From Bacteroidota bacterium (GTDB lineage Bacteria > Bacteroidota > Ignavibacteria > 0-14-0-80-59-12), in assembly GCA_049973045.1 (NCBI GenBank), contig JBMFJZ010000001.1:473363-537362 (forward strand): DNA of 64,000 nt, written 5' to 3'. Positions within the stretch are counted from its first letter, which is position 1. Each line of letters starts with the position of its first letter. This document shows, piece after piece, positions 44,183-54,372 of this stretch. The position numbers and the translations under genes were made by a program. Below the pieces are notes generated by a model. The model saw nothing but the letters and a program-made list of their open reading frames with translations. It had not been told where the DNA came from and did not search any database.

Positions 44183-45424
44183 ATGATGCGTGTTCGATTG
44201 GCTTTTTTCTTCACCGCTTTCGTTCCACTTATAAGTTTTTCTACAGGTGGAGGCTCACCCTATTCACGACTTGGGTTAGGTGACCTTCGATATTTTGCTG
44301 GGACGGCAGCAATTGGAATGGCAAATACCGGCATTGCCGTTGTCCATCCTAATGAGATCAGCGCACTTAATCCTGCAGCTTGGGCTGGAATTCACAGAAC
44401 GCGCTTCGACGTTGGCTTTCTCTATGAGGGATTCCAAACAGACGATCAACAAGTGAGCGTGTTCCAGAGCTCTGGGAATTTCAGTGGTCTTCTCTTTGCC
44501 ATCCCAGTAGCTCCCAGCCAGGGATTAACTGTAGCTGGAGGATTCTTGCCTTACTCGACGATGAATTACAACATCGAGACCTCCGTCTCGCTTTTCTCCA
44601 CGCCTGCTATTTCTCACTATTATGGAGATGGCGGAATTTCTATAGCTACCATCGGTTTTTCATACGACCTCATGTCGGATTTTCATATTGGTTCGCGATT
44701 TAACTACATTTTCGGAACGCTGGGATTCAACACTTCTCTTTCGTTTCCTCAAGCTAATGAACTCTTTGGAGGAACAGCACGAAAGGAGCTCAGCACCTAT
44801 GGAGTTAACTTTACACTCGGTGCAGTTGTCGATAGCCTTGGCAAACTTCTTTCGATGAGATTACTGAGGTCCGCATCGATTGGCTTTATCATCACAACAC
44901 CGAGCAAACTCAATCTTTCGAGAGTGACATATTATACGTATGCTCAGAAAAAGGATACAAGTGCCACGTCATCGTCAAGCGTTGATCTTCCATTCTCATT
45001 GGGTATCGGCATAGCTTTGCCGATTGCTCAGCGAACACTTCTCGCAGCGGATTTCTTCACTCAACCCTGGTCGAAGTCCAAGCCCTTGAGCCCCTCATCA
45101 CCGTTTGAAAATCTCCATCGCATTGCTCTCGGAATTCAACGTTCTCCCTATATCGAACCGGGTGCAGCCTATTTTGATCGAAGTGAATTTCGTGCTGGAA
45201 TATTTTATTCAACGCTCTATGAGACTGTAAATGGGAACAGCCTTCGTGAGTACGGGCTGAGCGGAGGCATCGGCTTACCCCTTTCAAGCGGAACAATGAT
45301 GCGAATTTCTGTGGAATACGCTCGTCGGGCACCGGAAGGGGAAAATCTTATAAATGACAGAATAATCCGGCTCGGCATCATGATCAGTGCCAGCGAACGG
45401 TGGTTCGTGCGTCCCGAGGAATGA
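44183..45424 (+). CDS. FadL/OmpP1/TodX-family outer-membrane transport protein (hydrophobic compounds)
   Basis: Signal peptide; hatch-like N-terminus GGGSPYSRLGLGDLRYFAGTAAIGMANTGIAV...NPAAW (the NPA motif region of the FadL family). Confidence 0.5.
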   Translation: MMRVRLAFFFTAFVPLISFSTGGGSPYSRLGLGDLRYFAGTAAIGMANTGIAVVHPNEISALNPAAWAGIHRTRFDVGFLYEGFQTDDQQVSVFQSSGNFSGLLFAIPVAPSQGLTVAGGFLPYSTMNYNIETSVSLFSTPAISHYYGDGGISIATIGFSYDLMSDFHIGSRFNYIFGTLGFNTSLSFPQANELFGGTARKELSTYGVNFTLGAVVDSLGKLLSMRLLRSASIGFIITTPSKLNLSRVTYYTYAQKKDTSATSSSSVDLPFSLGIGIALPIAQRTLLAADFFTQPWSKSKPLSPSSPFENLHRIALGIQRSPYIEPGAAYFDRSEFRAGIFYSTLYETVNGNSLREYGLSGGIGLPLSSGTMMRISVEYARRAPEGENLINDRIIRLGIMISASERWFVRPEE

Positions 45425-49286: not shown

Positions 49287-49802
49287 TCAAACGGCAAAAC
49301 GGGGATCGTTCAAAGCTCCCCCACGGACGGTTAATACCGGACATGGGGCTTTTCGAACAACTCTCTCCGTAGTACTCCCAAAGAGGAGATGCTCAACCGC
49401 CCCATGTCCATGCGCCGCAATAACAATGAGGTCGACATTTTCTGTTTCAGCAAGATGAACAATTTCTGCTGATGGTCTGCCGGTCAGGACCAAAGTACGA
49501 ACCTTTTTGGCAGCCGCACGCTTTTTAAGATACTTTACAACAAGTTTGTCAAGTTCCTCCTGACCCCGGAGCCGCAACTCATCCTCAACATTTGGAATCC
49601 CCACCTGACCCATACTAAAATCAGCAGGATAAATCACTGGCTCAACAACATAGCAAAGAAGCACTTCAGCATTAAACAGTTCAGCAAAGCGTGCTGCATA
49701 TTGAAACGCGTATTTCGAATGTTCAGAGAAATCAATTGGAACAAGAATTTTCTTTATCCGAACAGGGGATGGCGTTTGTCTTATTCGACGAACGTTAGCC
49801 AT
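49287..49802 (-). CDS. uspA: Universal stress protein UspA family
   Basis: KILVPIDFSEHS...AHGHGAVEHLLFGSTTERVVRKAPCPVL. Confidence 0.85.
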   Translation of the reverse strand: MANVRRIRQTPSPVRIKKILVPIDFSEHSKYAFQYAARFAELFNAEVLLCYVVEPVIYPADFSMGQVGIPNVEDELRLRGQEELDKLVVKYLKKRAAAKKVRTLVLTGRPSAEIVHLAETENVDLIVIAAHGHGAVEHLLFGSTTERVVRKAPCPVLTVRGGALNDPRFAV

Positions 49803-50701
49803 TGGTAAGGGTCCTCTCCATCCCTGACGATCTCGAAGAACCGCTTCTGCAAATCAAGCGTTATCGGCCCGGGCTTTCCATCGCCGATGAGAATTCGATC
49901 AATGGAGCGAATGGGGGTAATCTCAGCAGCGGTCCCGCAGAAGAAAAGCTCATCAGCAATGTAGAGCATCTCGCGAGAGATGTCGACTTCATGTACTTCA
50001 TATCCCGCATCTTTCGCTATTCTTAGGAGCGACATTCTCGTAATCCCTGGGAGAACCGCGCGTGTAAGCGGTGGGGTAAAAAGAATTCTATCGCGCACCA
50101 TAAATATGTTCTCTCCACTCCCTTCGCTTACGTAGCCATAGGCATCAAGAGCAATTCCTTCGGCGTAGCCATCAGCAGCAGCTTCAAGTCTGATTAACTG
50201 TGAGTTAAGATAATTACCTGTCGACTTCGCATAAGTAGGAAATGTATCCGGTGCAGCACGATGCCACGAAGAAAGCCGCACGTCAATCCCATTTGCTAGA
50301 GCACCAGCACCAAGGTAGCTTCCCCATTCCCAGACAGCAATGGCAACGTCTATAGGAATGCCGGATGGATCGACGCCAACATCACCATAGCCCCGATAGA
50401 CGAGGGGACGGATATAACAAGCCTTGAGCCCATTTGCTTTGATTGTCTCAATGATTGCTTCCTTCAGTTGATCAAGCGTATACGGAATTTCCACGCGATA
50501 GATTTTGCATGAATCATGCATCCGCCTTAGATGCTCCTGAAGTCGAAAAATCGCAGTTCCCCGCTTTGTCTCATATGCACGAATCCCCTCGAACCACCCA
50601 GACCCATATTGGATAACGTGAGAAAGAATGTGAATCTTCGCATCTGCCCAATCTACCAACGCTCCATTCATCCAGATCTTTGCAACTGGTTTAATGGACA
50701 T
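49781..50701 (-). CDS. ilvE: Branched-chain amino acid aminotransferase
   Basis: Class-IV aminotransferase motifs; AGGAGG RBS. Confidence 0.9.
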   Translation of the reverse strand: MSIKPVAKIWMNGALVDWADAKIHILSHVIQYGSGWFEGIRAYETKRGTAIFRLQEHLRRMHDSCKIYRVEIPYTLDQLKEAIIETIKANGLKACYIRPLVYRGYGDVGVDPSGIPIDVAIAVWEWGSYLGAGALANGIDVRLSSWHRAAPDTFPTYAKSTGNYLNSQLIRLEAAADGYAEGIALDAYGYVSEGSGENIFMVRDRILFTPPLTRAVLPGITRMSLLRIAKDAGYEVHEVDISREMLYIADELFFCGTAAEITPIRSIDRILIGDGKPGPITLDLQKRFFEIVRDGEDPYQWLTFVE

Positions 50702-50789
50702 AGGAACCTCCTTTTGCTCAAAAAATATGATGATGCTCGTTCAGCATCAAATGACCTGTTTTCCAGTGATAATTTCACCGGTCCCCCGC

Positions 50790-51914
50790 CTACGCGGGGA
50801 TTGGGATTTCGTAGAGTCGGTACTTCTTGTAAAGCTCGGCATTCAATAATTTAGCACTTCGGTTCATCATCAGATTGTCTTCTAAAACCCAGCTCGCTTC
50901 AGCATCGGCATACCCCAGCTCGATCCCCCGTCTGGCTGTCTCATAAAAAAGGACCGATGCTGCTCCTCCGCGTTGATACTCAGGGATAACTCCGAGAACG
51001 ATAATCCGCAGCCACGTGATCTCCTTCTTGTGAAGGATGAGTTTAATCATTCCGGGGATCAGCCTCCCTTTCTTATTGTACTTCAATGCCATATTTAAGT
51101 CGGGTAGTGATAGAGCAAACCCTATTGGCTTACCTTTCGACTCAGCGATGATCACAAGCTCCGGAACGACAATTTTCTTCAGATCCTCTGCAAGGTAATA
51201 AAACTCTTCGTCCGTCATTGCCACAGCGCCCCAGTTCTTTGCCCATGCCCGGTTATAAATCTCCTTGATACGGTTCACCTCATTATCAAAATCTTTCATA
51301 TTAATCGTTCGGAAACGGAGCCCCTCACGTTGCTTCACTGCTTCGGCTACACGTACAAGCTTATCAGAAATAACCCTATCCTTAGAAAGGTGGTAAGCGT
51401 AGAGGTCCTTAATTTTCCGCAAGCCGTACCCCTCAGTGAGTTCGATGTAGTATCGCGGATTGTACGGCATCATAATGACGGGAGGATACTCAAATCCTTC
51501 GATAAGAAGTCCCCAATCATCGTTCACAGAGGGATTAGCCGGTCCACGCATGGCAGTCGCACCTTTTGACTTTAGCCACTCACGCGCAGCATCAAAAAGA
51601 GAATTAGCAACGTGCTGGTCGTTTATTGACTCAAAAAATCCGTAAAAGCCTATGTTCTCGCCGTGCGTTTGGTTATGAGCATAGTTCATAATTGCCCCGA
51701 TTCTGCCGACGAGCTCACCATCACGTGAAGCAAGAAAAAGAGCAAGATCAGCATGGCGGTAAAACGGATTGTGCACAGTGTCAACGATCTTGCGGCGATC
51801 CATTAAAAGGGGTGGTACCCACATGGGCTCGTTCTCGTAGATCTTCCAGGGAAACTTTATAAAGCGCTTCAGATCACGCTTCCCTTCAACGCGGTGGATC
51901 GTTACATCACTCAT
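50790..51914 (-). CDS. GNAT-fold acyltransferase family protein (candidate bacterial ceramide synthase)
   Basis: About 375 aa with acyl-CoA N-acyltransferase-like halves. ATG at 51914 with a GAGGAGG RBS (the ORF-track start at 51959 is GTG). Located beside spt. Confidence 0.5.
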   Translation of the reverse strand: MSDVTIHRVEGKRDLKRFIKFPWKIYENEPMWVPPLLMDRRKIVDTVHNPFYRHADLALFLASRDGELVGRIGAIMNYAHNQTHGENIGFYGFFESINDQHVANSLFDAAREWLKSKGATAMRGPANPSVNDDWGLLIEGFEYPPVIMMPYNPRYYIELTEGYGLRKIKDLYAYHLSKDRVISDKLVRVAEAVKQREGLRFRTINMKDFDNEVNRIKEIYNRAWAKNWGAVAMTDEEFYYLAEDLKKIVVPELVIIAESKGKPIGFALSLPDLNMALKYNKKGRLIPGMIKLILHKKEITWLRIIVLGVIPEYQRGGAASVLFYETARRGIELGYADAEASWVLEDNLMMNRSAKLLNAELYKKYRLYEIPIPA

Positions 51915-51993
51915 GGAATATAGCCTCCTCTCTTGTTCAATGTACAAAACCTGGTTCACTTAACGCATACTTCAAAGCAACTTTCAACGAGGT

Positions 51994-52068: not shown

Positions 52069-53310
52069 TCAGTGAATAACACCGAGTTTTCTTCCCACCT
52101 TGCTAAAGGCATCGAGAATCTGATCCAGATGTGATTCCTCGTGGGTCGCCATAAAACTGGTACGAATGAGCTGCATCCCCTGCGGTACAGCAGGGCTGAT
52201 CACCGCATTCACAAACACTCCCGCATCAAATAGTTCTTTCCAGAAGATAAACGTCTTCATGTCATCGCCAATGATCACAGGGACAATAGCCGTTTTGCCG
52301 GGGATGACATTAAAGCCGAGTGATTGCAAACCTTGCCGAATTTTCTCTGAGTTATAGTGCAAGCGTTGAATACGTTCCGGCTCCTGCTCAATAATTTCAA
52401 GTGCGGCAAGAACCGCAGCAACTGCAGCGGGCGTTGGACTTGCGCTGAAAATCAAAGCTTGAGAATGATGTTTGATATATTCAATAACTTTCCGCTCACC
52501 AGCCACAAATCCACCAAGCGAAGCAAAAGACTTGCTGAAGGTTCCCATAATGAGATCAATTTTGTCATCCAGACCGAAGTAGCTCGCTGTCCCTCTCCCC
52601 CCTTTTCCAAGCACGCCTAACCCATGGGCATCATCAACCATAATACGTGCATTGTAATGTTCGGCAATCTCTACAAGCCTGGGCAGGTTCACGATATCAC
52701 CCGACATGCTGAACACACCGTCAACAACAATTAACTTTCCAGCATGTTTCGGTGTTTTCGAGAGCAACCGCTCAAGGTCATCCATGTCATTATGCTTGAA
52801 TCGTAAAAGCTCTCCCCCGCCACCTTTGACAATGAGTGTTCCCACAACTATACTGGCGTGATTTTCTTTGTCGCTGATGACGTAGTCACCCTTCTGGACA
52901 AGTGTTGCAATTACACCTTGATTTGTTTGATACCCGGTGCTGAAGATGAGTGCAGCTTCTTTTCCAACGAATTTAGCAAGGCGTTCTTCAAGCTGAACGT
53001 GAAGGTCGAGTGTACCGTTCAAATACCGAGAACCCGAATTCCCTGACCCATATTTCATTACAGCATTCATTGCTGCTTCTTTTACTTTGGGATGCGTTGT
53101 GAGACCGAGGTAGTTGTTAGAACCTGCCATGATCACCGTTTTCCCTTCTATTGTTACGACCGGTCCATCGTTAGCCTCGATCACCTTGAAATAAGGGTAG
53201 TATCCAAGTTTCTTTACCTCCTCAGCCCGGGTAAAGTTCCTGCATTTGTCAAAAAGATCCAATGTCCCTCCAGAATCTGAATCTCTTGGTATGACTCGTT
53301 TGCCTGACAT
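52069..53310 (-). CDS. spt: Serine palmitoyltransferase (alpha-oxoamine synthase family)
   Basis: [36 protein letters not shown]...[25 protein letters not shown]...VDDAHG, GTFSKS motifs. These match the Spt pattern recalled from Sphingomonas better than the Kbl or BioF patterns. Confidence 0.7.
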
Positions 53311-53358: not shown

Positions 53359-54372
53359 ATGAAAGAGATGGGCCTACGAGCTACCAAGCTAAATAATCCA
53401 AAAGCGTTCGTCACAGGTGGCACGGGCTTCATTGGTAGCCACCTCATAGAAGCTCTCATTTCAAAGGGGTATGCAGTACGTTGCTTGATACGACAAACAA
53501 GCAACACTCGCTGGCTCAAGACACTGGACCTGGAGTTAGTCCACGGCTCCCTGAGTGACCCTGATTCGCTTCTCCCCTTCCTCGCCGACGTTGAATACAT
53601 CTTCCACGTTGCTGGCATAACAAAGGCAAAGAGGTCACAAGAATATTTTCAAGCGAATGCTGAATCAACAAAGAACCTCCTCACCGCAGCGGTTCACTCC
53701 GGAGCTCCATTAAAACGCTTCGTGCTTGTAAGCAGTCTCGCCGCTGTCGGGCCCAGCCTCGACGGCGCCCCAGTGGATGAGCTCACTCCGTATCATCCTA
53801 TCACGGCGTATGGCAAAAGCAAGATGGCTGCAGAGCAATACTGCCATGCAGTGCTCGACCAAATTCCAATCACAATTATACGTCCACCAGCAGTCTATGG
53901 TCCCCGAGATCGTGACATCTACGCGCTTTTCAAATTAATCTCACACAGCATTCGACCAATCATGGGATCACGAAAGGCTTCATTAATTTATGTTCGTGAC
54001 CTCGTCGAGGGAATTATAATGGCAGCTGAACATGCAGCAACTGCCGGAAAAACCTATTTCCTCGCCGATGACCAAGTATACGATTGGAACCTTCTTGGCG
54101 TACTCATTTCAAATGCACTCGGGAAGAGGACCGTTGCCGTTTGGATTCCGAAGTCAATTGCTCTTGGAGTAGGTTGCTTCGTCCAAGCTACCTCGATATT
54201 CTCTTCCAAGCCTCCCCTCTTGAGTGTCGAGAAGATACGGGATTTGATCCAACCTAACTGGACGTGCTCAGCAAGACGTGCCCATGAGGATTTTGGGTTT
54301 TCCTCGCAAACACCAATTGAGAGAGGCGTAGCAGAAACTGTCGCATGGTATAAGACTGCAGGATGGTTATGA
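53359..54372 (+). CDS. NAD-dependent epimerase/dehydratase family reductase (candidate ceramide/3-ketosphinganine reductase, CerR-like)
   Basis: VTGGTGFIGSHL Rossmann and YxxxK extended-SDR features; divergent from spt with only a 48-bp intergenic gap. Confidence 0.6.
   Translation: MKEMGLRATKLNNPKAFVTGGTGFIGSHLIEALISKGYAVRCLIRQTSNTRWLKTLDLELVHGSLSDPDSLLPFLADVEYIFHVAGITKAKRSQEYFQANAESTKNLLTAAVHSGAPLKRFVLVSSLAAVGPSLDGAPVDELTPYHPITAYGKSKMAAEQYCHAVLDQIPITIIRPPAVYGPRDRDIYALFKLISHSIRPIMGSRKASLIYVRDLVEGIIMAAEHAATAGKTYFLADDQVYDWNLLGVLISNALGKRTVAVWIPKSIALGVGCFVQATSIFSSKPPLLSVEKIRDLIQPNWTCSARRAHEDFGFSSQTPIERGVAETVAWYKTAGWL

Follow-up and report, generated by a model that had tools for sequence, protein, structure and literature searches.

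In the published bacterial route to ceramides, Spt forms 3-ketosphinganine, which is then N-acylated and finally reduced (PMC11087976). The N-acyltransferase of dihydroceramide synthesis is represented by the aca genes, a list that includes CC_1154, yghO (ECD_02850), Swit_3908 and others (PMC9386255), and in Caulobacter the corresponding cerS, CC_1154, lies within the CC_1152–CC_1168 cluster (PMC11324152). Genetic evidence for N-acylation of 3-KDS also exists for the CerS of B. fragilis (bioRxiv 10.1101/2023.05.23.541633). The three ceramide genes are unclustered in Bacteroidales; Spt-like proteins as such occur in 40 phyla, often with homologues of bCerS and CerR nearby (PMC11334938). Both the bCerS family and the three-gene triad have therefore been published, and the protein described here, P0001, is a correct but ordinary case: judged from sequence, it is very probably a regular member of the bCerS family, a soluble tandem-GNAT bacterial ceramide synthase encoded in a three-gene set. 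The expectation of the earlier note that such an enzyme would extend the pathway to this lineage does not hold as a novelty, since PMC10667739, with reference to Stankeviciute et al. 2022, already attributes this genetic potential to 'Ignavibacter'. The known picture of the pathway is left unaltered, and what the result provides is a confident annotation in a family whose members are mostly labelled 'hypothetical' or 'GNAT family' ('GNAT family N-acetyltransferase') in databases.

The P0001 gene occupies positions 50790–51914, stop codon included, on the minus strand of the window (the whole 64,000-nt stretch of DNA that was analysed; all unprefixed coordinates refer to it). Translation from the ATG at 51914 gives 374 amino acids. 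The strong ribosome-binding site that the earlier note had described is present as the Shine-Dalgarno site GAGAGGAGG (51924–51932, minus strand, read from the sequence), with AGGAGG 9 nt before the ATG. An alternative GTG start at 51959 would add 15 residues; this longer form is unlikely because relatives can be aligned from the first residue of the ATG form onward, and M1 is invariant in an alignment of 13 sequences (A2). Directly upstream on the same strand lies the gene of an Spt-like alpha-oxoamine synthase, P0002 (413 aa, 52069–53310, assigned by NCBIfam and PDB matches), and downstream, again on the minus strand, lies ilvE, for a branched-chain amino acid aminotransferase (49781–50701; NCBIfam equivalog, 427 bits), so that the position between spt and ilvE given in the earlier note is borne out. 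A third gene, absent from that note, completes the known ceramide triad: an extended SDR resembling CerR, P0274 (337 aa, 53359–54372), is encoded on the plus strand, divergently from the synthase gene, and was recognized by Pfam Epimerase and an E. coli homologue. The P0001-type GNAT gene is single-copy in the genome, and a second synthase gene is found on another contig.

Fold and family of P0001

The AlphaFold2 model of P0001, computed with a 66-sequence alignment as input, has a pLDDT of 96.1 and a pTM of 0.93 and shows a tandem GNAT fold, in agreement with the two acyltransferase halves that the earlier note had expected for a protein of about 375 aa. Among PDB structures, Foldseek ranks tandem-repeat GNATs highest, with TM scores of 0.6–0.66 at 11–15% identity; those named include MAB_4324, a glucosamine N-acetyltransferase, MshD and a clavulanate tandem GNAT. 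Like P0001, the tandem-repeat GNATs of solved structure from M. abscessus (MAB_4324) and C. acetobutylicum (glucosamine N-acetyltransferase), as well as mycothiol synthase MshD, consist of two fused GNAT lobes; unlike a ceramide synthase, these three transfer acetyl and not long-chain acyl groups, and their substrates and gene contexts are unrelated to those of P0001. Searches with the P0001 sequence found no matching NCBIfam model and no match in the PDB, and Pfam sees only its C-terminal half (Acetyltransf_1, residues 215–348). The same lobe carries the acyl-CoA motif QRGGAA at residues 314–319, the sole Q/R-x-x-G-x-G/A motif in the protein; of 31 diverse family members, at least 87% share its G317.

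Homology to the published enzymes extends over the full length of P0001, with 36% identity to E. coli YghO over 374 aa (E 2e-76), 34% to the Sphingomonas homologue (E 1e-70) and 36% to that of Roseomonas; these named, annotated relatives were found by a translated search of a plasmid collection. Together with the linkage to an Spt-type synthase, this homology supports the candidate bCerS assignment of the earlier note. The connection to the genetically tested proteins, CCNA_01212 of Caulobacter and BF9343_4218 of B. fragilis, runs through published orthologue lists and gene position. CCNA_01212 (CC_1154), YghO and Swit_3908 of Sphingomonas wittichii resemble P0001 both in length, at about 375 aa, and in their partners, Spt and an epimerase-type reductase. 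Two features of the P0001 locus differ from the proteobacterial arrangement: in alpha-, beta- and gamma-proteobacteria, cerS and spt are said never to share an operon (PMC11324152), whereas the P0001 gene directly follows spt on the same strand, and the dedicated AcpR (ACP) and AasR (acyl-ACP synthetase) genes of the proteobacterial clusters are absent here.

This is a large family, whose members matched below E 1e-30 fall into 1,678 clusters at 50% identity. In a quick maximum-likelihood tree of 31 members, P0001 and the proteobacterial bCerS proteins of Roseomonas, Sphingomonas and E. coli form one clade (SH-aLRT 94), to which neither the Bacteroidales-type clade (Phocaeicola, Prevotella) nor a further clade belongs. 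The Bacteroidales-type homologues share about 28% identity with P0001 and, with B. fragilis CerS, belong to the same superfamily and, in GTDB terms, to the same phylum; we infer that the Phocaeicola and Prevotella matches are orthologues of BF9343_4218. A 784-aa relative, P0124, matches P0001 in two stretches, as though the entire two-lobed protein had been duplicated in tandem.

Conservation of gene linkage and co-occurrence

The neighbourhood of P0001 recurs among its relatives. The order synthase–GNAT–IlvE is found in 28 of 29 same-class loci. A second set, obtained by a search from alignment A2, comprises 80 loci of named species whose GNAT is 46–64% identical to P0001, and spans Ignavibacteria, Melioribacteraceae, Zixibacteria, Calditrichaceae, Gemmatimonadota, Bryobacterales, Caldisericaceae and others. 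A synthase gene lies in the flanks of 66 of these loci, directly upstream and co-directional in 59, and an SDR gene is present in 55; five of the 14 synthase-less loci have an upstream flank shorter than 1 kb. Among relatives in culture, Ignavibacterium and Melioribacter carry the triad as well. Four loci with 48–51% identical GNATs (L094, L108, L115 and L122; records labelled Kapaibacterium, Balneola and others) form a well-supported clade with no synthase or SDR gene within 10 kb, where either the gene has moved or the GNAT has another partner.

All six annotated homologues inspected, from Roseomonas, Sphingomonas, E. coli, Rubrobacter, Aureispira and Streptomyces, have a synthase gene adjoining or within about 10 kb, and an SDR is annotated in five, the exception being the Roseomonas stretch shown. 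In Sphingomonas parapaucimobilis the homologue shares one cluster with genes for an NAD(P)H-binding protein, an acyl carrier protein, a PLP synthase and an LptF/LptG pair. In Roseomonas mucosa it is clustered with ACP, synthase, CDP-alcohol transferase, DAG-kinase-like and phosphoesterase genes and an LptF/G pair, and is directly followed by an NTP-transferase gene. Both layouts match the description of the Caulobacter CC_1152–CC_1168 cluster (PMC11324152). The neighbours of E. coli yghO encode a fatty acyl-AMP ligase, an epimerase-type reductase, ACP, synthase, LptG and LptF, and a cluster of this kind is present in strain BL21 (PMC9386255). Rubrobacter and Streptomyces have the order synthase–GNAT–SDR, and in Aureispira an SDR gene is followed by synthase–GNAT in the opposite direction, which is the layout of the P0001 locus. 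On a linear plasmid of Streptomyces (L051:8042-9289) the overlapping synthase, GNAT and SDR genes precede one that encodes a condensation-domain protein; the set hints at a further modified N-acyl amino lipid.

In some relatives the two enzymes are a single protein. An N-terminal Spt-like synthase is fused to a P0001-type GNAT in P0165 (780 aa), P0259 (777 aa) and P0164, and frames of about 800 aa spanning synthase and GNAT occur within the same class, the overall size of the fusions being about 780–840 aa. Fusion frames were located in two genomes (G049:C12:18168-20558 and G341:C73:32711-35089); in G049 this contig also has an additional, separate copy of the GNAT.

Co-occurrence was assessed in a sample of 401 genomes of the phylum, where some match to P0001 is found in 387 and a P0002-type synthase (E 1e-110 or better) in 313. 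Close orthologues of P0001 track the Spt-type synthase across this sample. The close GNAT tier is present in 100 of 100 genomes of the class, the P0002-type synthase in 99; the corresponding counts are 85 and 86 of 87 in one family (f22) and 61 and 61 of 61 in another (f30). In two more families (f26 and f33) the synthase and a GNAT match of 1e-83 or better are confined to one and the same set of genomes. In family f18 all four genomes with a GNAT match at this level have the synthase, and the fifth synthase genome of that family, G063, carries a distant-tier GNAT directly after an Spt-like synthase. Two apparent exceptions (G245 and G065) have truncated GNAT matches, most likely because the contigs end there; G167 is a true exception, with a 44% identical GNAT and no close P0002-type synthase. 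The earlier note had named equal occurrence of the family in genomes lacking spt as the finding that would speak against its reading: this is not the case for the close orthologues, and it holds for distant subfamilies only, as GNAT tiers of 27–33% identity do occur in genomes without an Spt-type synthase. One such genome, G012, has as its best synthases a KBL and a cysteate fatty acyltransferase (669 bits to PDB 28EH).

Family membership alone leaves the amine substrate unfixed, because distant members occur without Spt and one of them, that of G012, lies near a cysteate acyltransferase. On the evidence of this genome, with its cysteate enzyme, and of G063, with its Spt-like synthase, the wider GNAT family appears to serve long-chain-base synthases in general. 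The GNAT gene of G012 (C12:478856-479908, L040) and its cysteate fatty acyltransferase gene (C12:493949-495085, L134) are about 14 kb apart; the GNAT, 28% identical to P0001 and of the Bacteroidales-type clade, is a candidate capnine N-acyltransferase of the sulfonolipid pathway.

Proposed pathway and alternative readings

Beyond the observed family membership, fold, gene linkage, fusions and phyletic co-occurrence of P0001, we infer a pathway with its substrates, its acyl donor (CoA or ACP), its order of acylation and reduction, and actual production of the lipid. P0002 would condense serine with a long-chain acyl thioester to 3-ketosphinganine. P0001 would then use an acyl thioester to attach a second fatty acyl chain to the amino group, giving an oxidised ceramide; the thioester would be bound by the C-terminal GNAT lobe, where the pyrophosphate-binding motif QRGGAA is retained. 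The CerR-like P0274 would finally reduce the 3-keto group to yield dihydroceramide. P0274 shares 31% identity across 318 aa (E 1e-42) with the 'epi' protein of the E. coli yghO cluster, a protein that matches ECD_02852 of PMC9386255, a CerR orthologue, by product name and gene order. On this basis the uncultured Ignavibacteria-related lineage studied here, and all 100 same-class genomes sampled, are predicted to make ceramide-type lipids, which may help in assigning environmental sphingolipids to their source organisms.

The same enzymes could instead act in the order known from eukaryotes, with the SDR reducing 3-ketosphinganine to sphinganine before the GNAT acylates it. Such an order was proposed by Olea-Ozuna et al. 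for Caulobacter and is reported for B. thetaiotaomicron-type species (PMC11324152; bioRxiv 10.1101/2023.05.23.541633). It would fit a cytoplasmic reductase, which P0274 may be, because its Rossmann motif GGTGFIG begins close to the N-terminus, at residue 20, and no obvious signal peptide is seen by eye, whereas Caulobacter CerR is periplasmic (PMC11087976). Set against this are the mutant phenotypes of Caulobacter and B. fragilis, in which loss of cerR leads to accumulation of oxidised ceramide and loss of cerS to accumulation of 3-KDS (PMC11087976; bioRxiv 10.1101/2023.05.23.541633). Nothing in the sequence of the P0001 locus itself decides the order of the steps; we regard the eukaryote-like order as unlikely, though as the alternative that deserves most weight.

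Far less probable is a reading in which the pair makes a lipid that is not derived from serine, such as a sulfonolipid, a 1-deoxy base or a glycine-derived base, and P0001 N-acylates that base. The score of P0002 against the NCBIfam model SerpalmtaseCFB, 531 bits, is below the equivalog cut-off of 640, and the Spt-less genome G012 shows that a bCerS-like GNAT can occur with a cysteate acyltransferase. The PDB matches of P0002 argue against this reading: the best is the SPT of Sphingobacterium multivorum (412.6 bits), with BioF/KBL at 321, Sphingomonas SPT at 290 and the cysteate acyltransferases 28EH and 7U7H at only 247.5 and 223.6 bits. In addition, the segment STGYQTN of P0002 aligns with STGFQSN of SPT; an Asn that lies next to PLP in SPT is missing in the cysteate enzyme (PMC13692747), and the Asn of STGYQTN is presumed to be this SPT-specific residue. 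The clade to which P0001 belongs is, moreover, the one linked to Spt-type synthases. A cysteate acyltransferase as the partner of P0001 was rejected on the Spt-type character of P0002, for which serine is a likely, if not certain, substrate, the reservation being due to the score under the NCBIfam cut-off.

That P0001 is an unrelated GNAT standing beside the synthase by chance, whether a protein or small-molecule acetyltransferase, a FemAB-like peptidyl transferase or an N-acyl amino acid synthase, has a negligible probability: a weak match to Pfam FemAB_like (19.7 bits, E 5e-4) and the appearance of FemX among the lower structural matches would favour it, but that score is below the 27-bit cut-off, and adjacency kept across several phyla, fusions and strong co-occurrence effectively refute it. 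The functions that the earlier note had listed as incompatible give no above-threshold match to P0001, the FemAB-like identity failing also on Acetyltransf_6 (15.2 bits, cut-off 22) and on gene context, and the N-acyl amino acid synthase identity on a score below threshold and, likewise, on gene context.

The intergenic hairpin and the downstream ilvE

The synthase and GNAT genes are separated by a 154-nt spacer that contains a hairpin followed by UUUUUUAUUUUAU, at about 52033–51994 of the minus strand, with a folding energy of -19 kcal/mol and a z-score of -2.3. The terminator that the earlier note had placed between spt and the GNAT gene is thus found as a predicted, terminator-like hairpin with a U-run; the separate promoter implied there is putative. 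A comparable hairpin before a T-run is present in 18 of 60 spacers of relatives, a count made without a shuffled control. A second terminator-like hairpin lies between the GNAT gene and ilvE (50731–50749, minus strand), as identified by pattern scan only. A scan for sigma-70 promoters was set aside, since the consensus is not expected in this bacterial group.

The gene ilvE directly follows the GNAT gene in 28 of the 29 same-class loci and in 24 of the 80 species loci; the GNAT is at least 49% identical to P0001 in all 24 and at least 53% in 21 of them. Linked to the bCerS gene, ilvE would plausibly supply branched-chain primers for iso-branched ceramide chains. A more far-reaching possibility is that in this lineage spt, cerS and ilvE form a conserved unit in which the recurrent hairpin is an attenuator setting the ratio of long-chain base to ceramide, with the transaminase coupling the branching of ceramide chains to branched-chain amino acid availability. 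We consider this idea doubtful and hold it with low confidence; if true, the attenuator and the ilvE unit would amount to operon-level control of bacterial sphingolipid synthesis, of which we found no description.

Several minor features of the region were also seen. A universal stress protein gene overlaps ilvE by 22 nt (window 49287–50701 for the pair), and the two genes follow the GNAT mostly in the closer relatives, ilvE in 24 and the universal stress protein gene in 21 of the 80 loci. The genome encodes one other class-IV aminotransferase, on contig C2 (36% identical). Further along the window, a 413-aa open reading frame with no Pfam match (44183–45424) sits between a gene for a carbohydrate-binding-like protein and rpiB.
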